This document shows, piece after piece, positions 1 through 55,912 of a DNA stretch of 64,000 nt; within the stretch, counting starts at the first letter, position 1; each line of letters opens with the position of its first letter. The position numbers and the translations under genes are program-made. The notes under the pieces are model-generated. The model worked only from the letters and a program-made list of their open reading frames with translations, did no database searches and was not told the DNA's origin. The stretch lies in contig CAZQCC010000004.1 in the NCBI GenBank assembly GCA_964592055.1, positions 7,162-71,161 of the forward strand, given 5' to 3'. This DNA is from an uncultured Ignavibacterium sp. GTDB taxonomy: Bacteria > Bacteroidota > Ignavibacteria > Ignavibacteriales > Ignavibacteriaceae.

Positions 1-249
1 GATGCAATTCATCCGAATGATCATACCGAATATATTAATACCGGATTTGAATATGCCTGGAATGAAATAATTCATGTTCGTGCTGGGTATAATTCTTTAT
101 TTGAGAAGGATTCTGAAAAAGGGTTAACTCTCGGCTTTGGATTGAATTACAGGATCATCGAACTTGTAAAAGTTAAATTAGATTATGCTTATCAGGATTT
201 TGGCAGATTAAATGACGTGCATTATTTTTCAGTCGGAATAAATTTTTAG
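1..249 (+). CDS. C-terminal fragment of an outer-membrane beta-barrel protein (PorV/PorQ-like T9SS-associated family suspected)
   Basis: Frame 1 is open from the window edge to TAG at 247-249. The translation ...GLTLGFGLNYRIIELVKVKLDYAYQDFGRLNDVHYFSVGINF has an alternating beta-strand pattern and a terminal Phe typical of OMPs. Confidence 0.45.
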   Translation, partial: DAIHPNDHTEYINTGFEYAWNEIIHVRAGYNSLFEKDSEKGLTLGFGLNYRIIELVKVKLDYAYQDFGRLNDVHYFSVGINF

Positions 250-347: not shown

Positions 348-962
348 ATGAGAACTAATCTCAAGAACAATGAAAAAATAATTTTCAAAACACATCAGCA
401 TTGGGTGGTATTGATTCCATCATTCGTTATCTCATTGATTATTTTTCTGCTTTTTATTTTACTTTATTCAGTTATTGCGGATGCAAATTTTTGGCTGGTA
501 ATTATTGGACTACTTGCTTTTGGATATTTTGGCTTTAAACTTTTAGAACGCAGATATGATATCTGGATAGTAACCAATCTCAGAGTGATAGACGAACAAG
601 GTTTGTTTTCAATCAGCGTAAAGGAAAGCCCACTAGAAAAAATAAATAATGTAACTTATCATCAATCACTTACAGGAAGAATCTTTAAGTTTGGCGATAT
701 TGAAATACAGACTGCCGCAGAAATGGGTTCAACAACTTACTACAAAATTGCCCGGCCAAACGAGCTCAAAGATTCAATTACTTCTGCTCAAGAAGAGTAC
801 AAACAGAATGTTTTAGTAAATCAGGCAAGTAAATTTGCTGAAAGTATTGGTAATAATGAATCAATTAATGATACAATGGAATGTCCGTTTTGCGCTGAGA
901 GAATTAAAATTAAAGCAAAGATCTGCAGGTATTGCGGAAAGGATCTGCCGCCGGTAAATTAG
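348..962 (+). CDS. Membrane protein with a bacterial PH (YdbS/YdbT-like) domain and a C-terminal zinc ribbon
   Basis: Two N-terminal hydrophobic helices are followed by RRYDIWIVTNLRVI, as in bPH_2 proteins. The C-terminus carries CPFC-x10-CRYC. Confidence 0.55.
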   Translation: MRTNLKNNEKIIFKTHQHWVVLIPSFVISLIIFLLFILLYSVIADANFWLVIIGLLAFGYFGFKLLERRYDIWIVTNLRVIDEQGLFSISVKESPLEKINNVTYHQSLTGRIFKFGDIEIQTAAEMGSTTYYKIARPNELKDSITSAQEEYKQNVLVNQASKFAESIGNNESINDTMECPFCAERIKIKAKICRYCGKDLPPVN

Positions 963-2590
963 TTGCCGCAAACCTGCTCAAATACACGTTTAAAATTACT
1001 GCCTAAAAATTTTGCAACTTCCTGTTCGGTATAGCCATGCTGTAATAAAGCTAAAGTCAGATCAGGAAATTTACTAACATCTTCTAATCCAAGAGGAGTA
1101 ACTTCAATTCCATCAAAGTCGGAGCCGATAGCTACATAATCAGTTCCAACTAAATTTACTATATGATCGATATGAGCAATTACATCTGCAATTGATGCGT
1201 TTGAACTTCCGTTTAAGAAATACGGATAAAAAACAATGCCGATCACTCCGCCTGTATTTGCGATATCCTGAATTTGTGAATCGTAAAGATTTCTGTAGTG
1301 ATCGTGAATACTGCGAGCCCCGCTGTGTGTTGCAACTATCGGATTAGTTGTAATTGAAAGAATATCCTGAATAGTTCTGATACCAGTATGAGAAACATCA
1401 ATGATTACTCCGAGTGAATCAAGTTTACGGATAACCTCTCTTCCAAAGATGCTTAATCCCTGTATCAAAGTTCTGTTGTCCTTTGCCGATATAGCCCAAC
1501 TTGTGCTGTTGTTCCAGGTAATAGTTAAATATCTCATTCCGGAATCGTAAAGCTGGTAGAGTTTTTCAAGATTATTCTCTATGTGATGACCGCCTTCAAC
1601 TCCTATAACAGCAGCTATTTTATTCTGGCTATTAATCGCTAAAGATTGCTGCATTGTAGTTGCTTTTGCAATAGTAGAAGGGTTCAATGCTAATTCAGTA
1701 TTGAAAAGATCACGCATAATCAACGCCTGATCAAAATAGTTAGTGTAAGCTGTTGGACTAACCCAAATTGAAAAGAATTGAATATCAACTTCGCCCATTT
1801 GCATTCTGGGAATATCGGTATGATTATAAGTGTGCAGATCAGCAAGATGATAATTGGGATCATTAACCATTACTTCAAGAACATCATTGTGAAGATCAAT
1901 AAGAGTATATTTTGAATGTATTGTTTGAAGCAATGTTGAAAAGTTTTCTCCACCATTAATTGAGGCAATTGTCGAATCAGCTGCAAAACCAAATTTATCT
2001 ATTACAATTTCAAGATCAATGGCGGCACTGAGAACATCAGAATTGTAAGTATTAGAAATCCCTGTACGAATTTCTCCCAGGCCAATTCCATTTCCGCCAT
2101 CAAGTTGAAGCATTTTTTTTGTTAATGACTGGTTACCAAAAGATATTGTATAAAGATAAACTCCGGCGCTGCCTTTGCTGAACCAATCCACTGTATAAAT
2201 GCCACTGCTTAGGAGCATACTTTTTTTATCGATGAGTTCACCAAGAATATTGTGTACAGTAATTGTAACCTCTCCATTAACCGGGATTGAAAAATTTATT
2301 TTTGTGGAAGGATTAAATGGATTAGGAAAATTTTGATCTACTCTGAAATCGTTAGGTAAATTATATATCGGATCGACAGAAACAGCCATAACATCATACT
2401 GCCACGTACCTCCAATATCCGTAAAAACAGAATCTGTAATCCCGTTAGAAAAATTTTTTATCCGCACTCTTGCATCTTCAATGGGTGAATTACTTTTAAG
2501 ATCCTTAACATTGCCTGTTATTGAGATTGTTTGTGCGTTTAATATGACACCAAAAAAATAGAAGGACAATAATATTAAAAGAGATTTCAT
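959..2590 (-). CDS. Secreted membrane dipeptidase (peptidase M19) with an N-terminal extension containing an internal T9SS-CTD-like domain
   Basis: Signal peptide MKSLLILLSFYFFGVILNAQ. M19 motifs DLHNDVL, IIDVSHTG, ATHSGAR and IGSDFDGI occupy residues about 228-543. Residues about 85-165 read NFPNPFNPSTKINFSIP...GVYLYTISFGNQSLTKKMLQL. Confidence 0.7.
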   Translation of the reverse strand: MKSLLILLSFYFFGVILNAQTISITGNVKDLKSNSPIEDARVRIKNFSNGITDSVFTDIGGTWQYDVMAVSVDPIYNLPNDFRVDQNFPNPFNPSTKINFSIPVNGEVTITVHNILGELIDKKSMLLSSGIYTVDWFSKGSAGVYLYTISFGNQSLTKKMLQLDGGNGIGLGEIRTGISNTYNSDVLSAAIDLEIVIDKFGFAADSTIASINGGENFSTLLQTIHSKYTLIDLHNDVLEVMVNDPNYHLADLHTYNHTDIPRMQMGEVDIQFFSIWVSPTAYTNYFDQALIMRDLFNTELALNPSTIAKATTMQQSLAINSQNKIAAVIGVEGGHHIENNLEKLYQLYDSGMRYLTITWNNSTSWAISAKDNRTLIQGLSIFGREVIRKLDSLGVIIDVSHTGIRTIQDILSITTNPIVATHSGARSIHDHYRNLYDSQIQDIANTGGVIGIVFYPYFLNGSSNASIADVIAHIDHIVNLVGTDYVAIGSDFDGIEVTPLGLEDVSKFPDLTLALLQHGYTEQEVAKFLGSNFKRVFEQVCGN

Positions 2591-6341: not shown

Positions 6342-8021
6342 ATGAGACTATACATAAAACTATTATTACTTCTAATAATATCTGTAAATCAAAATATCGC
6401 TCAGGTTGAAACAGTTCCATCTACCAATGGAGTTTATATTTTTCTTAAAGAAATGAAAGTTAAAGGTGTATTAGACTTTATTAGAGAGGATGATCCGGTA
6501 CTATCCAGATTTGAAATTAAATTTCTATTGAATGAAATATCAGATCATATTTCAGAATTAACCCGTACTGAAGCAAAACTTCTGGATAAATATTTATTTG
6601 AGTTTTCAGATTCCATTCATCCTGATTCATCAACACAATTATTTAATCCACAGAATAGTTTCTTTTCTGATCTGGACCAGATGATTACTGACAAAGTTAA
6701 ATATTTGTATGTTTACCGGGAGCCAGGCGCAAATGTTTACTTTGAATGGCTCGGACATTTTTATCACGGTCAGGATTTCTCACAGGAAAGTGCAGTAAAT
6801 TCTAATTTGTATGATATCGGTTTCAGGATAAGAGGAACGGTTTTCAATCAGCTTGGGTACAACCTTTCGGTTTTAAAGGGTGGAGTGAGCGGAAACAGGT
6901 CTTTTGCAGAAATTATTGAACCGAGGCTGCTTACAAGTTTTAAGTGGATTGAGAATATAGAAAATATTGGTAATTATGATTTTACTTATGGATATCTTAA
7001 ATATCACTCCGAGCCTGTTGAAAATATGCATCTTGCAGTACAATTAGGCAGGGAAGATATAACACTGGGTTATGGGTATGGAAGTAAACTCATCCTTTCC
7101 GGAGATAACCCAACAATGGATTTCATAAAATTTAATTTCGATTATGGAATAGTTAGTTTTTCTTCAGTTCACGCATCAACCACAGGTTATTTTAGCTTTG
7201 ATAGAGAAGAGCGCTATACAAAGTTTTATGCACACAATCACTTAAAACTTAAGTTTGAAAACCTTTTTGATATTGGGATTGGTGAAACGACTATCTATTC
7301 GGGTAGAGGCATTGATCTGAGCTATCTGGCACCCGTTACGTTTTACAAGTTTATTGAAATGGGAATTCAGGACAGAGACAACGGCAACATCTATTTTGAT
7401 CTGCAGACTAAGTTTGTAAAAGACCTGGAACTTCAAGCTACTTTTCTTCTTGATGAAAATATTTTAAGCAACCTAGCCGATCTGAATAAATTCACTAATA
7501 AAACTGCTTACCAGCTTGGAGCATTTTGGTATCAACCAATAGGGATAAATGATTTATCCCTGATATTAGAGTACACTAAAATCCGGCCTTATGTTTATAC
7601 ACATTATGATATAAAGAATAATTACACCGCATTTGGTGCAAATCTAGGTCACAGAATAGGTCCAAACGCAGATGAAATTATGATCCAATCTAACTATAAC
7701 TTTAACGAGTGGATTAGATTAAGTGCTGAATATCGTTATCAGAGAGAAGGAGAAAATGTTTTTGATGAAAATGGAATATTAGTAAAAAATGTAGGCGGTG
7801 ATATTGCATTATCTCATGGTTACGAGCTAACGACTGATAGAGCATTTTTTTTAGATGGAGAACGTGTTAATTCAAATTTCTTTAAGCTGGGAATGCGAAT
7901 TGAACCAATACGGGATTTCATCTTCGAAGTATCATATAATCATCTGAACAGAGAAAATCTGGCCAAAAATCTTTCTGAAAATCTAAGCTATGCTTTATTC
8001 AAGTTTACACTTGAGTATTAA
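6342..8021 (+). CDS. Outer-membrane beta-barrel protein, Wzi-like (capsule assembly family suspected)
   Basis: Signal peptide, then an N-terminal helical region (VYIFLKEMKVKGVLDFIREDDPVLSRFEIKFLLNEI) resembling Wzi-family N-termini. A long amphipathic-strand region ends in ...FKFTLEY. Confidence 0.4.
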   Translation: MRLYIKLLLLLIISVNQNIAQVETVPSTNGVYIFLKEMKVKGVLDFIREDDPVLSRFEIKFLLNEISDHISELTRTEAKLLDKYLFEFSDSIHPDSSTQLFNPQNSFFSDLDQMITDKVKYLYVYREPGANVYFEWLGHFYHGQDFSQESAVNSNLYDIGFRIRGTVFNQLGYNLSVLKGGVSGNRSFAEIIEPRLLTSFKWIENIENIGNYDFTYGYLKYHSEPVENMHLAVQLGREDITLGYGYGSKLILSGDNPTMDFIKFNFDYGIVSFSSVHASTTGYFSFDREERYTKFYAHNHLKLKFENLFDIGIGETTIYSGRGIDLSYLAPVTFYKFIEMGIQDRDNGNIYFDLQTKFVKDLELQATFLLDENILSNLADLNKFTNKTAYQLGAFWYQPIGINDLSLILEYTKIRPYVYTHYDIKNNYTAFGANLGHRIGPNADEIMIQSNYNFNEWIRLSAEYRYQREGENVFDENGILVKNVGGDIALSHGYELTTDRAFFLDGERVNSNFFKLGMRIEPIRDFIFEVSYNHLNRENLAKNLSENLSYALFKFTLEY

Positions 8022-8243: not shown

Positions 8244-8284
8244 TCTTAAAAACAAGCAAATAAAAAATTCATTGAGGATAGCTT

Positions 8285-10285
8285 ATGAAAAAATCAATAC
8301 TTCTGTTCTTCTTTCTGGTTACTGTTGGAACAATGCTCAGCTTTGCTCAAACAGTTACATTAAGCACATATGGTGTAGCACCATATGATGTTTCAGTTGA
8401 CACTCTAGAACAATATTTCGATAGACCATATAACGGACTAAAGAATGTTGGAGTGAATACTAAAGTCTATTTAAAAGTAAAATCTACTTTGGCTTTTACT
8501 AACCCAACCTGGGAGGTAATTGAAAAACCAACCGGTTCAACTGTTCAATTTGGTAATGCAAAAGTAATCGATACTTCTAATCAGATCATTACTTTTATTC
8601 CTGATCTAGCGGGAACCTATAAAGTTAAGGTAACAGTTGATACAAAAACAGCTGAAATGGTTTTTAATGCCGCTCTTTATTGGGGAGTTGAAGGCGGACC
8701 GGTTTCATGTAAAACCTGCCATCAAAATACTATCAATAATATTCCTGATCTTTACAATGCATGGGTGAACACCAATCATGCTATTGATACCAAAAAAGGA
8801 CTTGATGGAGAACTTAGTAGTCACTTCCAGGAATTTTGTTTAGCTTGCCACTCCACGGGCTACGATCCTGATGCTGATAATGGTGGTTTTGATGATTTTC
8901 CATTTGTATTCCCATCTGTTTTACAGCCGGGAACCTACAACCAGATGGTTGCACTTTATCCTGATGCAATGGCAAGAGCAAATGTACAGTGTGAAGCCTG
9001 CCACGGTCCAGGAAGCAATCACTTAAGCCAGATAGATAATGCTAAGATCGATGTTACACTATCTTCAGATGTTTGTGCATATTGCCATAAAGAAGGTTCA
9101 CATCATAATATACCATTACAATGGGATCTTTCTGTTCATGGAGCTGGAACTCATTTATATTCTGGTGCCAGCAGATACACCTGTACACCTTGCCATAATG
9201 GTCAGGGATTTGTTGATTTTGTAAAAGGTGATCCTCAAAGCGTTCAGGTTAACATTGCAATTACTTGCGCAACCTGCCATGATCCTCATTATGCAACAAA
9301 TGCACATCAATTAAGAACTGTTACAGCTACCATGAAAAACGGATTAGTAGTTGATAATGCTGGTAATGGCGGCCTTTGTTTGAATTGTCACCAATCAAGA
9401 CAAAACGCTGTTCCATTCGTAGAGAATTATTTAGTGGCATTAAATTCCAGATTCGGTCCTCATCATGGTCCTCAGGGAGATATGCTGATTGGAACAAATG
9501 CATATACATGGGGCGAAACACTTGATCAGTCACCACACTTTGCAGCTATCGAAGATGCTTGTGTTGGCTGCCATATGTACGAAAATAATAACCCACTTAA
9601 TTCAGAATTAAGCGTTGGAGGACATACGTTTAGTATGGTTAACAGTTTAGGTGAAGATAATGTTGAAGCCTGTGCAGATTGTCATGGTAACGTCGGTACA
9701 GATTTCGATCAGAAAAAACTATACATAAACGGCAGTGCTGATCTTGATAAAAATGGTGTTGCTGAAGGATTACAAATTGAAGTCGAAGGTCTGTTGCATC
9801 AGCTAGCAACTTTACTACCTCCTTACGGTTCACCGGATATTAATGTAATCGATTCATCCTGGACACTTGATGAAGCAGGTGCATTATATAATTACAGAAA
9901 TATTGAAGAAGACAGAAGCTTTGGTATGCATAATCCAAGATTTACTGTTGGTTTATTGTATCTTTCGATTGGTAAATTAGGTGGAACGGTTAGCATCGAT
10001 GATTTAAATTCTGAATTACCAAGCACATATGCTTTATCAAACAATTATCCTAACCCATTTAACCCAACAACCACTATCAATTTCTCAATTCCTGAGCAGA
10101 CCAATGTTAAAGTTATAATTTATGATGCACTTGGTAATCAGGTTGATGTAGTTGCAAATGAAGTTAAATCCGCTGGTAATTATAGTGTTAAATGGAATGC
10201 AGTAAATTATGCTTCGGGAATTTATTTCTACAAACTTGAAACTGATAATTTCGTCCAGGTTCGTAAGATGGTTCTTATGAAATAA
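8285..10285 (+). CDS. Nine-haem c-type cytochrome with a T9SS C-terminal sorting domain
   Basis: Signal peptide and 9 CXXCH motifs (CKTCH, CLACH, CEACH, CAYCH, CTPCH, CATCH, CLNCH, CVGCH, CADCH). The C-terminus reads NYPNPFNPTTTINFSIP...GIYFYKLETDNFVQVRKMVLMK. Confidence 0.85.
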   Translation: MKKSILLFFFLVTVGTMLSFAQTVTLSTYGVAPYDVSVDTLEQYFDRPYNGLKNVGVNTKVYLKVKSTLAFTNPTWEVIEKPTGSTVQFGNAKVIDTSNQIITFIPDLAGTYKVKVTVDTKTAEMVFNAALYWGVEGGPVSCKTCHQNTINNIPDLYNAWVNTNHAIDTKKGLDGELSSHFQEFCLACHSTGYDPDADNGGFDDFPFVFPSVLQPGTYNQMVALYPDAMARANVQCEACHGPGSNHLSQIDNAKIDVTLSSDVCAYCHKEGSHHNIPLQWDLSVHGAGTHLYSGASRYTCTPCHNGQGFVDFVKGDPQSVQVNIAITCATCHDPHYATNAHQLRTVTATMKNGLVVDNAGNGGLCLNCHQSRQNAVPFVENYLVALNSRFGPHHGPQGDMLIGTNAYTWGETLDQSPHFAAIEDACVGCHMYENNNPLNSELSVGGHTFSMVNSLGEDNVEACADCHGNVGTDFDQKKLYINGSADLDKNGVAEGLQIEVEGLLHQLATLLPPYGSPDINVIDSSWTLDEAGALYNYRNIEEDRSFGMHNPRFTVGLLYLSIGKLGGTVSIDDLNSELPSTYALSNNYPNPFNPTTTINFSIPEQTNVKVIIYDALGNQVDVVANEVKSAGNYSVKWNAVNYASGIYFYKLETDNFVQVRKMVLMK

Positions 10286-10316: not shown

Positions 10317-10351
10317 GAAAGAGCCCGTGTTCACACGGGTTCTTTCGTTTT
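10317..10351 (+). terminator. Rho-independent terminator of the cytochrome gene
   Basis: GAAAGAGCCCGTG-TTCA-CACGGGTTCTTTC forms a 13-bp stem with one G-U pair. It is followed by GTTTT. Confidence 0.8.
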
Positions 10352-51778: not shown

Positions 51779-53287
51779 TCATTCGGTTTTCCAATGGCAA
51801 TCGGTGCAAAGTTGCAATTGTTCGGCTTTATCAAGATCAATGGGATGCTGAAATTTCAATCCATCAAGATCGATCCTGGTTATACCTTCACCATCAGTTT
51901 GAGAGATAATTTTGTGGCAACTGTTACAATCATTCGAGATAACTTTCCCATCATCACTTATGTGGTTTCCGTCATGACACCTAAAACATCCCGGTGTATA
52001 AACATGTGAAATATTGTCGGGAAATTGTTTCCAGTTTGCATTCATATATGGAAAATAATTTCTTGAGTAAATCGATTGCACTACCTTGATGCTTTGATCG
52101 ATTGATTGTTTTTTTGAAGCATAAATTTCCGGGTAATTGGAATTGTAAAAGTCATTTATTCTTTGATGAATAGTTTCTAATGCGTGCTGTTTGGTTGAAT
52201 ATTTATCTTCAAGAACTTCAACAGAAATGCTTTTTATGAATGGTATAGATTCATCCACATTACCACTTGCCATCATTTGATTCATCATTTTATCAGGTTG
52301 ATGATAAATATGGGATGGCCGATTATGACAATCGATACAATCCATTGTCCTTAAATTTTCTTTGTTAAAATTCTTTTCATCAAACTTTGCTTTTTTATTT
52401 CTAAAAATTGTTTCTTTACCATCCTTCGAAACAACTTTTACCCAAGGTATTTCAAGTCTGCGTTCATCAGTATGAACGTATGTAATAATGTTATCCGGAT
52501 TCGCATGCCAGTGTACTCCTTCGATTGCGCCTAGCTCACTCTTACCGCCACCAATCTTTATCAGCATGCTCAATTTTGATTTCGTGTTATTTTCATCGGA
52601 GATATAATACGTATAATCAACCTTCTTTTCATTAAAGAAGTGAGAAGGTGTATGGCACTGTTCACACGTACCTTCTGCAGGTCTTAATGCATGAACCGGA
52701 GTTGGTATTGGACGTGAGTATTTGTTAAACAAAACCGAATAAACCTGATACGCTCCTGAAAATTTTGATTTAACATACCAGCTTGTTCCCGAACCAATAT
52801 GGCAACCAACGCAACCAACTCGTGAATGAGGTGAATCCAAGTAAGCAGTATATTCCGGTTCCATAACCTGGTGGCAAATGGTTCCGCAAAACTCGTCTGT
52901 TTCTGTGTACTCATAGGCCTTAAAGCTGCCGAAAGCGGAAAATAACATCAATACTATTGTTCCGACTGAGAAGGTAACAAACATTGCTCTTTTCTTTGGA
53001 TCGTTTAAATCGATTACCGGAAGACTTTGTGATCGGAGTTTCCCTTGCTTTTCTCTTTTCCTTTCGCGAATTATACCATAGGCTATTAGTAATAATCCAA
53101 CTATCAGGATTGAAGGGAGTATTATATACGTCAGAATCCCCATATATGTATTCTCATCGCTGCTGAAAATATCCAGTATGAAAAGAAAGAGAATTAATCC
53201 AAAACTTAAAATTGCAATGCCTGCACCAGTAAGTGTAATTGGATTATAAACGTAGTGGGGAAAAATTTTTCTCATATAATTCCTCAA
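51779..53287 (-). CDS. Inner-membrane 7-haem c-type cytochrome, ImcH-like architecture
   Basis: Three N-terminal TM helices, then CGTICH (CX3CH) plus CVGCH, CEQCH, CIDCH, CFRCH, CNSCH and CTDCH. Length is 502 aa. Confidence 0.75.
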   Translation of the reverse strand: MRNYMRKIFPHYVYNPITLTGAGIAILSFGLILFLFILDIFSSDENTYMGILTYIILPSILIVGLLLIAYGIIRERKREKQGKLRSQSLPVIDLNDPKKRAMFVTFSVGTIVLMLFSAFGSFKAYEYTETDEFCGTICHQVMEPEYTAYLDSPHSRVGCVGCHIGSGTSWYVKSKFSGAYQVYSVLFNKYSRPIPTPVHALRPAEGTCEQCHTPSHFFNEKKVDYTYYISDENNTKSKLSMLIKIGGGKSELGAIEGVHWHANPDNIITYVHTDERRLEIPWVKVVSKDGKETIFRNKKAKFDEKNFNKENLRTMDCIDCHNRPSHIYHQPDKMMNQMMASGNVDESIPFIKSISVEVLEDKYSTKQHALETIHQRINDFYNSNYPEIYASKKQSIDQSIKVVQSIYSRNYFPYMNANWKQFPDNISHVYTPGCFRCHDGNHISDDGKVISNDCNSCHKIISQTDGEGITRIDLDGLKFQHPIDLDKAEQLQLCTDCHWKTE

Positions 53288-53344
53288 TTCTTATTTAAGG
53301 AAAAGAAAGATGATATTTAATAAAGAATTTAAGTAAAGCTAAGA

Positions 53345-55549
53345 TTAAACTTCATCTGAACTTTCTTCAGATTTCATTCTTTCTTCAGCTTGTTTTCTTT
53401 TAATTCTTTCAAGTTCAAGCGGATGTTCTTCAGCCATTTCTTCTTCGGTAACGGTACCTTTAAACCAGGCCAAGCTCATCGGGTAAACATCAGGATTAAA
53501 GATTACAAAGTAGAAATGCCAAATGACTATAGCAAGAAACGCTAACCAGGCTTCATAGTAATGAATTGTTCTGGCAATATCCCAATCTAGTTTTGAGAAT
53601 ACGCCTATGTAATCAATATATATCCACATTAACAAACCAGTAACAGTCATTACTATTGTTCCCCAAACTAAAGCCCAATACTCAGCTTTTTCTACATAAC
53701 TAAATCTATCAAGTTTTGGTTTCTCTTTTGATAACCCAAGATTAAATTTTGCAATACCTATTGCATCAGTAAAATCTTTTAGAGTAGGGAACAGATCCTT
53801 AACTAATTGTCTTCCTCTTTGGGTAAATGCAATGTAGTAGATGTGGTAAAAGCTAACCAAAATCATTGCAATTGCAGCAATTCTGTGTATCCAACTTCGA
53901 TATTCAACAGCATCTGGCCAAATATCTCTAATGTGAGATACCCACCAAGATTCCGGATATCTTAACATAAATCCTGTTAGTACTAAAATCATAAAACTGA
54001 TTGCCATTGTAGCGTGTTGAATTCGCTCATTAACAGTCATTCTAAGATATAGAGCATGCCCATGTTTCTCTTCTCTAATATGGCCTAGCTGTTTTAACTT
54101 TTTAATCTTAGACTTTTTAATAAGATCAAATAGATTATGAAGGAACATGCCGCCAAGAATTGAAAAGAGTAAAGAAATGTAAATTGTGGAAATCCAATAA
54201 AGAATTGGCTCATCATCTTTTTCTAGAGTAACGTGAATGGTTCCCTTTGTAAATGTTTCATTAGCCCCCGGATGACAGGAACCGCAAGTCTTCACCAAGT
54301 TATCCTTGTGGATCATTGATGTTGGATCTGAAGACGGTTTGATGTTGTGAACACCATGACAACTACCGCAATTTGCAACTGTTGCTGATCCACCACTCAA
54401 TGCTAATCCATGATATGATTCAGAAAAAGTTTTATATCTATTTGCGGACATTCCATACTTTTCTGAAAGGGCAACAGATTCATGACAAGGCGAACATATC
54501 TCCCTTGATACATTCTGAAACGCAACTGGTGAATTAGGATCATCAGCGCGTAAAATGTTATGTTCACCATGGCAGTTTGTGCAAGAAGGAGCGTCTCCGT
54601 TGCCTTTTGCTACCAACTGACCATGAATACTTTCTGAAAATTCACTCTGAATAGCACTATGGCACTTTCCGCAAGTGTTAGGGATATTTAATCTGTTAAC
54701 AGTTGAGCGGGAATCCGTACCTTTTAAAACATTGTGTGATTCGTGACAGTCAATACAGCTAGCTGCATCTCCATTTTTTTCAATGTGAAGCGCCAAACCA
54801 TGTACGCTCTTATCATAAGCATGTATAAATCCTGTAGAAGGAGTAGTTCTGTTTTTTACATCTTCATCATCCAGATGGCAGGATAAACAAAGTTTTTCCT
54901 GAGCGATCTTTTTATCAACAATCTTATCCCCAAATGCTGATCTTGTTATTGGAGATTTATGGCAGCTAATACAATTGGGTGCAAATTTATCCCCATTCTT
55001 AAAAGCAATACCATGATTTGAATTAACAAAATGTTCTGTAGCTTCTTTATGGCAATAACCACAAGATGAAATTAAATTGGTCTGGTTCCACTTGCTGCGT
55101 GAGCTGTTTACTTTCATAACATCGTGGATACCATGGCAGCTTTTACAAGATGTATCCTGCGTTTTTCCCAAACCCTTTGATTTAATTATCTGAGGGTGAA
55201 AGGAATGCTTGGTAAGATCTTTCTGATGACAGCTGACGCACTTAACATCCTGAATATTTTCAGCGTGGGGCATCGCTTCAGCATCGAAACCTTTATGGCA
55301 AGCAATACAATTTAATTTAGAATGAGAAGAACTTTTGTATACATTTTCATCAACGAACAGGGAAATTTCTTTCCCTTTTTTTTCCATAGTGAGTTCGTTA
55401 TCACTATGGCACATTAAACAGTCATCATTCGATTGAGCATATATTTTTGGGGGTAGAATAACTAATCCGATTACAAGGAGGGTTTGTATAAATTTTAAGA
55501 TGTTTGGGAAGCATCTTAATTTCTCGTATGATGATGATTTAAGTGCCAT
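53345..55549 (-). CDS. Fusion of a 13-haem periplasmic cytochrome c domain with an FdnI/HydC/PhsC-type dihaem cytochrome b membrane domain (CbcL-like)
   Basis: Signal peptide and 13 CXXCH motifs in residues about 44-430. Five TM helices follow, with conserved His (IQHATM, HRIAAIAM, FYHIYY, TIHYYEAW, WHFYF). Confidence 0.8.
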   Translation of the reverse strand: MALKSSSYEKLRCFPNILKFIQTLLVIGLVILPPKIYAQSNDDCLMCHSDNELTMEKKGKEISLFVDENVYKSSSHSKLNCIACHKGFDAEAMPHAENIQDVKCVSCHQKDLTKHSFHPQIIKSKGLGKTQDTSCKSCHGIHDVMKVNSSRSKWNQTNLISSCGYCHKEATEHFVNSNHGIAFKNGDKFAPNCISCHKSPITRSAFGDKIVDKKIAQEKLCLSCHLDDEDVKNRTTPSTGFIHAYDKSVHGLALHIEKNGDAASCIDCHESHNVLKGTDSRSTVNRLNIPNTCGKCHSAIQSEFSESIHGQLVAKGNGDAPSCTNCHGEHNILRADDPNSPVAFQNVSREICSPCHESVALSEKYGMSANRYKTFSESYHGLALSGGSATVANCGSCHGVHNIKPSSDPTSMIHKDNLVKTCGSCHPGANETFTKGTIHVTLEKDDEPILYWISTIYISLLFSILGGMFLHNLFDLIKKSKIKKLKQLGHIREEKHGHALYLRMTVNERIQHATMAISFMILVLTGFMLRYPESWWVSHIRDIWPDAVEYRSWIHRIAAIAMILVSFYHIYYIAFTQRGRQLVKDLFPTLKDFTDAIGIAKFNLGLSKEKPKLDRFSYVEKAEYWALVWGTIVMTVTGLLMWIYIDYIGVFSKLDWDIARTIHYYEAWLAFLAIVIWHFYFVIFNPDVYPMSLAWFKGTVTEEEMAEEHPLELERIKRKQAEERMKSEESSDEV

Positions 55550-55570
55550 AGTTGATAAACTTAAACCTAA

Positions 55571-55912
55571 TTATTCACCTTTAAGCGTTAATAACCAATC
55601 AACTAAAACTTTAAGATCTTCGTCGCTTCCTTTAAAGGATGATTTATGATCTTTATCGTTTAACTTAGCTTCTTTTTTCAAATATTTTGTTAAGAATTCT
55701 GCAGTCTTATCTTTTCCAACAGCAGAAAGATCTGAAGCATCAGATTTCTTTGATTCTATACCTGCTGATTGAACTGTATGACACATCTGGCATTTGTTGT
55801 CAACAAAAATTTTCTTGCCATCATCGCTTTTCTGATCTGCGATCGTATATGCAAAACCATATAGAGCAACTATGGTCACGATTAAACCAAGATAAATCAA
55901 TACGTTTTTCAT
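55571..55912 (-). CDS. Membrane-anchored monohaem cytochrome c
   Basis: N-terminal hydrophobic anchor and a single CQMCH. Length is 113 aa. Confidence 0.7.
   Translation of the reverse strand: MKNVLIYLGLIVTIVALYGFAYTIADQKSDDGKKIFVDNKCQMCHTVQSAGIESKKSDASDLSAVGKDKTAEFLTKYLKKEAKLNDKDHKSSFKGSDEDLKVLVDWLLTLKGE

Follow-up and report, generated by a model that had tools for sequence, protein, structure and literature searches.

The window analyzed here is a 64,000-nucleotide stretch of DNA from an uncultured Ignavibacterium sp. (contig CAZQCC010000004.1 of assembly GCA_964592055.1, positions 7,162 to 71,161), and its gene at 8285-10285 encodes a nine-haem c-type cytochrome that ends in a type A C-terminal sorting domain of the type IX secretion system (T9SS). 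The reading we favor, at a probability of about 0.55, is that the haem core belongs to the family of OcwA (TherJR_2595 of Thermincola potens, structure 6i5b), the cell-surface nonahaem terminal reductase of a Gram-positive bacterium, and that the protein would be exported by the T9SS to serve as a terminal extracellular module fed via a separate porin-cytochrome conduit. The coordinates of the gene, its domains and the other features discussed are collected in Table 1. Loci on other contigs are given by L numbers.

The same protein is carried by 23 public contigs. The intergenic regions around the gene are 263 bp upstream and 198 bp downstream and thus the gene looks to be transcribed as a monocistronic unit. 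A sigma-70 promoter scan gave no surplus over shuffled sequence. The signal peptide, read by eye as MKKSILLFFFLVTVGTMLSFA followed by QT, has a charged n-region, a 17-residue hydrophobic core and an alanine-glutamine cleavage context, and an A/S/G/P-Q context is seen in nearly all of 34 aligned homologues. The signal region has no lipobox and the first cysteine of the protein is residue 142, hence the product is not predicted to be a lipoprotein. Note that glutamine is at the predicted +1 position in almost all family members (SFA/Q, YSQ/S, MQA/Q, the slash marking the cut). This pattern agrees with the Bacteroidetes 'Q-rule', a rule that is not valid across the whole Fibrobacteres-Chlorobi-Bacteroidetes (FCB) group (PMC5837995).

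All 18 cysteine residues fall within nine CXXCH motifs (residues 142, 185, 236, 264, 300, 328, 365, 426 and 463, counted by script), a number far beyond chance, and a scan of the protein for CXXCK and CX3-4CH variants found none. An AlphaFold model built on the alignment of the 34 homologues (mean predicted local distance difference test score, pLDDT, of 73) gave an immunoglobulin (Ig)-like sandwich, a mostly helical haem core, three long helices (residues 496-564) and a C-terminal beta-sandwich. In Foldseek searches of the PDB residues 24-130 matched Ig, filamin and S-layer Ig domains at probability 1.0; the Pfam PKD and Filamin matches to the protein were weak and below threshold. Sequence, Pfam and AlphaFold therefore bear out the whole description given in the sequence-only reading, an earlier note on this DNA made without database searches: a Sec signal, an Ig-like stretch, nine CXXCH motifs and a terminal T9SS tail.

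The tail (NYPNPFNPTTTINFSIP...FVQVRKMVLMK) scored 47.9 bits against TIGR04183 (curated cut-off 23) and 41.5 bits against PF18962, Por_Secre_tail (cut-off 27), the latter over residues 588-663 of 666, and is thus above both thresholds. AlphaFold modeled it as a beta-sandwich of six strands (residues 595-664, block-mean pLDDT 74-90). The product appears to carry all the features expected of a T9SS type A cargo, and cleavage of the PorU type would be expected in the linker at residues 566-587. Classical cargoes of this type, such as RgpB and HBP35 of Porphyromonas gingivalis and the Por-tagged glycoside hydrolases of Melioribacter roseus, have the same combination of Sec signal and terminal TIGR04183/PF18962 beta-sandwich. 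Unlike these, the cargo here would be a covalently haem-loaded respiratory cytochrome.

The haem core was assigned by comparison with the sequences of the PDB. A profile of the 34 homologues gave OcwA 6i5b as best match (E 3.6e-16), aligned over haems 1 and 3-9 plus the helix bundle, and a single-sequence phmmer search also gave OcwA as best match (E 6e-5). The next profile matches were 6qvm (E 1.8e-9) and then NrfA and octahaem nitrite reductases, which align with the C-terminal half of the core (two haems and the helical bundle) at E 3e-9 to 1e-5. The distal pockets of the five-coordinate haems 2 and 5 of OcwA are formed by HH281/282 and HH380/381 (PMC6703420, whose residue numbers we follow; the offset from the chain index is 29), and His273-His274 and His393-His394 of the window protein align with these pairs. 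His273 is kept in 28 and His274 in 27 of the 34 homologues, whereas His393 is kept in all 34 and His394 in 26. Nine CXXCH motifs are kept in 30 of the 34, the other four having eight, and the invariant residues outside the motifs are eight histidines (165, 246, 285, 335, 393, 418, 447 and 549) and three methionines (229, 431 and 451). The helix-bundle region aligns with the helical regions of OcwA and NrfA, including a D-S-x-G-x-HN motif. The profile match, the His-His pockets, the helix bundle and the motif conservation together indicate that the core is an OcwA-like member of the NrfA/octahaem nitrite reductase/MccA superfamily and not a decahaem cytochrome of the Mtr type. The homology to OcwA rests on sequence profiles, because a Foldseek search of the PDB with the full-length model matched Ig domains only and so was uninformative on the core.

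The window protein shares with OcwA nine CXXCH motifs in the same order, both His-His pockets, a CxxCHM sequence at haem 8, the three-helix bundle with its D-S-x-G-x-HN motif and, as predicted here, an extracellular role. It differs in adding an Ig-like domain and a T9SS tail, which OcwA lacks, and pairwise similarity between the two is weak. As its host is diderm, the window protein, unlike OcwA, must cross an outer membrane. Structure 6qvm, which we take to be OmhA of Carboxydothermus ferrireducens (not confirmed, as the OmhA paper is silent on 6QVM), belongs to the same NrfA-related superfamily and is more distant from the window protein than is OcwA. OmhA has 11 haems, a Gram-positive host and no T9SS tail, and is up-regulated on ferrihydrite (PMC7829351).

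Two other assignments of the core were rejected. The top Pfam match was Mtrc-MtrF_II-IV_dom (53.6 bits), covering only profile positions 83-168 of 176. This partial match, the count of nine haems, the lack of a lipobox and PDB sequence searches that gave no MtrC, OmcA, MtrF or UndA chain at E up to 1 exclude membership in the MtrC/OmcA/MtrF decahaem family, in which two pentahaem domains alternate with two beta-barrel domains. An NrfA-type nitrite reductase was excluded by the absence of CXXCK and by a PF02335 score of only 8.7 bits (cut-off 24.1). The C-terminal two haems and bundle are like those of NrfA and the octahaem nitrite reductases, but the haem count and the N-terminal half differ.

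The same core features bear on function. The protein could be a secreted or surface redox enzyme that acts on soluble compounds (nitrite, hydroxylamine, sulfur oxyanions, peroxide or other toxic oxidants) through one or two haems of open coordination, for detoxification or scavenging rather than respiration of solids. The alignment of both histidine pairs with the OcwA pockets, the alignment of the C-terminal half with nitrite reductases and the presence of nine haems but only eight invariant non-motif histidines are in keeping with such an enzyme, as is the slow reduction of nitrite and hydroxylamine by OcwA (PMC6703420). However, there is no CXXCK catalytic motif, the pocket residues vary in 6-8 of the 34 homologues, OcwA turns over nitrite only about once per minute (PMC6703420) and the links to ImcH-like, CbcL-like and porin-cytochrome (Pcc)-like genes in relatives, described below, point to a respiratory chain. 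We consider an enzyme of this kind unlikely, and return to the T9SS-exported terminal module.

The distribution of the tail sets it apart from the core. The homologue search covered a collection of 5.8 billion proteins and returned at least 1400 matches. Among the matches listed, 120 of 120 homologues carry the PF18962 tail, and those with a named source come from Ignavibacteriales, Ignavibacterium or Melioribacteraceae and have no NCBI label other than 'T9SS type A sorting domain-containing protein'. MBK7229129.1 (79% identity) is one of them, and QQS37668.1, which lies on the complete genome CP065001.1, is another. Exhaustive searching by HMMER, with the core only (residues 131-575) as query, gave 2206 clusters (50% identity) at E up to 1e-3, of which 365 had an E of 1e-30 or lower; nine CXXCH motifs were present in 87 and a terminal tail in 70 of the best 150 cluster representatives.

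A phyletic scan was made with one genome per GTDB species, using core-only alignment followed by reconstruction of the open reading frames. The tail was found in Ignavibacteria/Melioribacteraceae, Calditrichota, Neomarinimicrobiota, some Gemmatimonadota, Glassbacteria, Latescibacterota and KSB1. In contrast, no tail was detected even at E 10 in the homologues from Verrucomicrobia, Chloroflexota, Deltaproteobacteria/Myxococcota/Geobacteraceae, Nitrospinota, Sumerlaeota, Planctomycetes and Armatimonadota. Tail-less forms with lipoprotein-like starts occur in several Deltaproteobacteria/Myxococcota/Geobacteraceae, in Chloroflexota and among short proteins of the Gemmatimonadota type. Since the tail is almost confined to lineages of the FCB type while the same core elsewhere lacks it, the tail is, on this distribution, a lineage-specific export module joined to a widely used cytochrome core and not a part of the cytochrome fold. 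A T9SS has been predicted in FCB phyla including Gemmatimonadetes, and in Ignavibacteriota it 'may be present' (PMC11285876).

One tail-bearing (tagged) cytochrome is an exception to this pattern, that of L061 (CAYPBB010000004.1), a contig of 52% G+C in a co-assembly bin titled Ectothiorhodospiraceae. In this bin, labeled gammaproteobacterial, a tagged nonahaem cytochrome shares a single cluster with a CbcL-type gene and a Pcc-like set. This would be explained by mis-binning of the contig or by transfer of the entire pathway.

A cultured relative, Stygiobacter electus 09-Me, encodes a nine-haem member of 715 residues with an above-threshold tail (PF18962, 44.8 bits). We take this organism, the identification being unverified, to be the isolate described in PMC11708057, which respires iron, sulfur and arsenic and represents a new genus of Melioribacteraceae.

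Two recurrent C-termini were noted in the tail-less homologues, ...(F/Y)(F/Y)RVxxxP in a set including Verrucomicrobia and ...TGxD(V/I)PGAxLRY-like ends in others that include lipoprotein-like forms (proteins P0123, P0149, P0152, P0166, P0180, P0184, P0190, P0207, P0211 and P0243 and loci L029, L037 and L041). These motifs may be other sorting or anchoring signals. Tagged nonahaem genes occur as tandem pairs in L010 and L035, and additional tagged paralogues with 5-8 haems lie nearby in L015, L021, L022 and L007; thus the repertoire of tagged cytochromes per genome can exceed one.

Comparison of closely related strains showed that the locus is hypervariable and mosaic. Against L090 the flanks are 93-100% identical in nucleotide sequence, identity falls to 42-75% exactly over 8300-10250 and it is again 100% just past the stop codon. 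The Wzi-like protein encoded upstream is 97.9% identical and the peptidase M19 identical between the two, whereas the L090 allele of the cytochrome (698 residues, nine haems) is only 56% identical. In the comparison with L093, identity is 92.5-99.5% in most of the flanks, in the 5' part of the gene and in the tail (97-99.5% for the latter two, 99% for the tail itself), and it drops to 66-87% in the hypervariable segment within the gene. A single 200-nucleotide bin, which runs over the stop codon into the downstream spacer, is at 89.6%. As the breakpoints of divergence lie at about 9040 and at the junction of core and tail, these data point to recombination that would swap the haem core as cassettes while the export signals stay. 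Diversity restricted to a single gene is typical of exposed surface proteins. The pattern seen here fits an exposed protein, as the export model would have it.

The only gene associated with the T9SS that we identified in the window and the adjoining sequence encodes an outer-membrane protein of the PorV/PorQ family and sits 8 kb upstream of the cytochrome gene. The full gene, present on a matching contig (L001:951-1964), scored 215.6 bits against NF033709 (cut-off 90) and fell below the PorV and PorQ equivalog cut-offs. No core T9SS gene is present within the 64-kb window. A porU gene is often positioned directly upstream of a porV-type gene. The gene at that position encodes a protein of 1141 residues (its equivalent is L091:9191-12616, minus strand), but the full protein has no NCBIfam or Pfam match and its last 309 residues show weak PorZ-tail similarity only. 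Therefore, it cannot be named PorU.

The peptidase M19 gene (959-2590, minus strand) also contains a T9SS-tail-like sequence (QNFPNPFNPSTKINFSIP...SLTKKMLQL; TIGR04183, 37.6 bits), located internally at residues 87-159, after the signal peptide region and ahead of the catalytic domain, where it cannot serve as a C-terminal signal. The 543-residue gene model is identical on several public contigs, and such domains can thus occur out of context in this organism. This could be taken to mean that the tail of the cytochrome is likewise a vestigial or structural Ig-like domain without signal function and that the protein stays in the periplasm, and the lack of core T9SS genes in the window would fit this. 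However, the cytochrome tail lies at the extreme C-terminus with the usual K-x-x-x-x-K end strand and scores above both thresholds, between strains its nucleotide identity stays at 99% where that of the adjoining core falls to 66-87%, and it is almost confined to lineages with a known or predicted T9SS. Periplasmic retention is therefore hardly credible. The cargo features, the lineage restriction of the tail and the nearby PorV/PorQ-family gene argue instead for the export of a haem-loaded cytochrome through the T9SS proposed in the sequence-only reading, and to that extent the proposal is supported.

Export alone would leave the protein apart from its electron donors, and the neighborhoods of its relatives contain candidates for the missing link. 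A cluster of co-oriented genes begins with the tagged cytochrome in L020, L070, L088 and L061; the L020 protein has the same architecture as that of the window and a core 51% identical to it. The following genes encode, in order, a c554-like tetrahaem cytochrome (184-189 residues), a haem-free protein (423-443 residues) that has a signal peptide and whose C-terminus is aromatic, a cytochrome with 14 haems (11 in L061) and a cytochrome with 6 haems (5 in L061) and a lipoprotein-like signal start. The L020 6-haem cytochrome contains the Geobacter CxxxxCH...CXXCH motif.

The haem-free protein belongs to a family without a Pfam or NCBIfam match that has at least 1020 homologues, mostly in Ignavibacteria. 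Its AlphaFold model (pLDDT 83, predicted template modeling score 0.71) is all-beta, DSSP assigning 26 strand elements beyond the signal helix. In Foldseek this model matched the barrels of ushers, AlgE and porins (probability 1.0, template modeling scores up to 0.55). The protein is thus predicted to be an outer-membrane beta-barrel of roughly 24-26 strands. In all four clusters its gene lies between those of the tetrahaem and the 11- to 14-haem cytochrome. The family probably supplies a porin-cytochrome conduit with its porin, one not described so far. Judged from gene order and the predicted barrel, the set of barrel, 14-haem and 6-haem proteins beside the T9SS cargo is a Pcc-like conduit. 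In the Geobacter Pcc systems of the OmaB/OmbB/OmcB type a periplasmic multihaem cytochrome, a large barrel and a lipoprotein cytochrome are likewise set together. Unlike those systems, the clusters have the tagged cytochrome as an extra fifth component, and the likeness to OmbB is one of arrangement and barrel prediction.

These clusters also bear on the claim of the sequence-only reading that the exported cytochrome is itself an outer-membrane solution that requires no MtrCAB-type or Pcc-type conduit. The window's own gene, like those of L005, L006 and L007, has no adjacent porin or cytochrome partner, and the 64-kb window contains no conduit genes, as would be expected if none were needed. 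However, export places a protein but carries no electrons across the outer membrane, and a secreted or surface-anchored cytochrome would be out of contact with periplasmic donors. Moreover, Pcc-like clusters follow the tagged cytochrome in the four genomes above, and OmbB-like porin-cytochrome clusters have already been reported in Ignavibacteria (PMC7399161). The claim is not supported on these grounds, and a pathway without a conduit seems very improbable. We retain the T9SS-exported module fed through a separate conduit. As the tagged gene stands alone in the window and in L005-L007, the conduit is deduced from the other genomes.

Among the window's neighbors, the Wzi-like outer-membrane protein encoded upstream (6342-8021) was considered as a porin partner and rejected, because it is found only near close relatives of the gene (L001-L004, L090 and L091) and not beside the homologues of L005-L007. 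No conserved operon partners were found around the window's own orthologue group. At L046:12505-14043 (minus strand) and neighboring genes, from Gemmatimonadales, the surroundings of a tagged cytochrome include a Rieske/cytochrome b pair with 9-, 14- and 11-haem cytochromes on its flanks. That pair would be an inner-membrane entry point unlike the ImcH and CbcL types.

The inner-membrane module at 51779-55912, which the sequence-only reading had named as a natural partner of the cytochrome, contains genes of both of the latter types. ImcH is described as having up to three transmembrane helices, a NapC/NirT region and seven haem motifs, the first of them CXXXCH (PMC4251993). The 502-residue protein of the module has transmembrane-like segments at residues 15-33, 47-65 and 100-118, a NapC/NirT region, CGTICH at residue 134 and six CXXCH motifs (Cytochrom_NNT, 44.5 bits, cut-off 24.1), and by these features it can be called ImcH-like. 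The ImcH-like and CbcL-type genes stand side by side behind the monohaem cytochrome c gene in one apparent operon, and both of the inner-membrane quinol oxidases of the Geobacter type thus occur in one genome of the Ignavibacteria type. The 734-residue CbcL-type protein aligns along its full length with the product of L061:754-3021 at 52% identity, and that L061 gene shares a co-oriented cluster with the Pcc-like set and the tagged cytochrome. The 502-residue protein is 41-45% identical to the products of genes directly beside tagged cytochromes in L039, L080 and L042. These cases of synteny, L061 for the CbcL type and the other three for the ImcH-like type, support the proposed partnership.

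Electrons could instead flow inward through the same architecture at the same location, the donor being Fe(II), a cathode or a partner in syntrophy. In principle a multihaem wire can run both ways, sequence fixes no direction, and the monohaem class I cytochrome c beside the inner-membrane module is compatible with inward flow. However, ImcH and CbcL have been characterized as quinol oxidases for outward transfer (PMC4251993), and the Melioribacteraceae isolate considered above respires iron (PMC11708057). Inward flow is therefore quite improbable, and we describe the terminal module in the outward direction.

In the mechanism we propose, the Sec system would move the protein into the periplasm, where the nine haems would be attached and the protein would fold. 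The type A C-terminal domain would then hand the folded cytochrome to the T9SS for passage across the outer membrane. The tail would probably be removed, leaving the protein either anchored to the surface or released. Outside the cell it would form the end of an extracellular electron-transfer chain and exchange electrons there, the likely partners being Fe(III) or Mn(IV) minerals, humics, flavins or electrodes. The electrons would pass from the quinone pool to the ImcH-like and CbcL-like proteins, then to periplasmic cytochromes, to the separate porin-cytochrome conduit and finally to the tagged cytochrome.

In Shewanella MtrC and OmcA are exported by the type II secretion system (T2SS). The T9SS would here play the role that the T2SS has for those proteins, in that it would position the outer cytochrome and not substitute for the transmembrane conduit. 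MtrC, OmcA and MtrF are thus functional analogues: outer cytochromes matured in the periplasm, placed on the surface by a secretion system and working with a conduit. The window protein differs from them in having nine rather than ten haems, no lipobox, another fold family and another secretion system. A more elaborate version, which we offer tentatively as a possibility, is that the T9SS is the dedicated export and anchoring route of a distinct pathway of the FCB type. In this pathway a PorU-type sortase would cut the tail and attach the cytochrome covalently to a surface glycolipid, giving a redox coat that docks on the undescribed barrel conduit. The exposed haem core would be reshuffled between strains by ongoing recombination, with the export signals left in place.

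Several findings weigh against the exported terminal module. The fold of the core was not confirmed by Foldseek, and the AlphaFold confidence of the core is moderate, several segments having pLDDT <50. The two His-His pockets could mean catalysis on soluble substrates and not mineral reduction. In the window and in L005-L007 the tagged cytochrome stands alone among surrounding genes that are unrelated between genomes, and there is no porin-cytochrome cluster within the 64-kb window. The T9SS is represented by the PorV/PorQ-family gene only, and the adjoining gene for the 1141-residue protein matches no PorU model. Finally, in the literature we found no report that any member of the family is secreted, lies at the surface or reduces metals.

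Nor did we find a paper in which multihaem cytochromes or extracellular electron transfer are brought together with the T9SS or with Por sorting domains, most subscription journals being outside the coverage of the search. A multi-omics paper on M. roseus contains nothing on multihaem or extracellular cytochromes. Por tails have been noted on carbohydrate-active enzymes of that organism (PMC3534657).

Table 1 Features of the window and of related loci (window positions unless an L number is given; aa, amino-acid residues)
Feature	Position	Strand	Remarks
PorV/PorQ-family outer-membrane protein gene, 3' end	1..248	+	rest just upstream of window
Shine-Dalgarno-like GAGGA	8274..8278	+	6 nt 5' of ATG; direct sequence reading
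Whole gene	8285..10285	+	ATG start, 666 aa; nonahaem c-type cytochrome with T9SS type A C-terminal sorting domain
Sec/signal peptidase I signal peptide	8285..8347	+	aa 1-21, predicted cleavage between SFA and QT; sequence reading
N-terminal Ig-like beta-sandwich	8354..8674	+	aa 24-130, AlphaFold strands
OcwA-like nonahaem core (by profile match)	8675..9979	+	aa 131-565; profile match to OcwA 6i5b
Hypervariable segment	9047..10046	+	haem 4 to core end; 66-87% nucleotide identity with L093
His273-His274	9101..9106	+	aligned to OcwA HH281/282, distal pocket of five-coordinate haem 2
His393-His394	9461..9466	+	aligned to OcwA HH380/381, distal pocket of five-coordinate haem 5
C-terminal three-helix bundle	9770..9976	+	helices aa 496-508, 528-543, 551-564; AlphaFold pLDDT about 89-96
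Linker	9980..10045	+	aa 566-587, ...KLGGTVSIDDLNSELPSTYALSN; position from domain boundaries
T9SS type A sorting domain	10046..10282	+	aa 588-666
Terminator-like hairpin	10317..10346	+	13-bp stem, 7 G-C pairs, 32 nt past stop; consensus scan only
ImcH-like inner-membrane cytochrome	51779..53287	-	502 aa; putative quinol oxidase
CbcL-type protein	53345..55549	-	734 aa; 13 CXXCH fused to HydC/FdnI-type cytochrome b membrane domain
Small monohaem class I cytochrome c	55574..55912	-	N-terminal hydrophobic segment; upstream of both inner-membrane cytochromes
Haem-free barrel-family genes (predicted barrel)	L020:10366-11637, L070:10165-11439, L061:3813-5144, L088:9001-10272

To our knowledge, the route by which multihaem cytochromes are exported to the surface of diderm bacteria is known only for a few Proteobacteria (the T2SS for MtrC and OmcA). 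The protein described here would be a surface cytochrome of the OcwA type with a new export route, its tail being already labeled by automated annotation. The conserved tail offers a testable answer to the question of export for Ignavibacteria, Calditrichota, Marinimicrobia, Gemmatimonadota and their relatives, groups that are abundant in sediments, aquifers, wastewater and anode biofilms. Since a cultured carrier exists in Stygiobacter electus 09-Me, the hypothesis is directly testable. If it is true, the cargo range of the T9SS would grow to covalently haem-loaded respiratory proteins, the OcwA-like core plus tail would be a sequence marker for predicting extracellular electron transfer in metagenomes and the unannotated barrel family would be indicated as the likely conduit.

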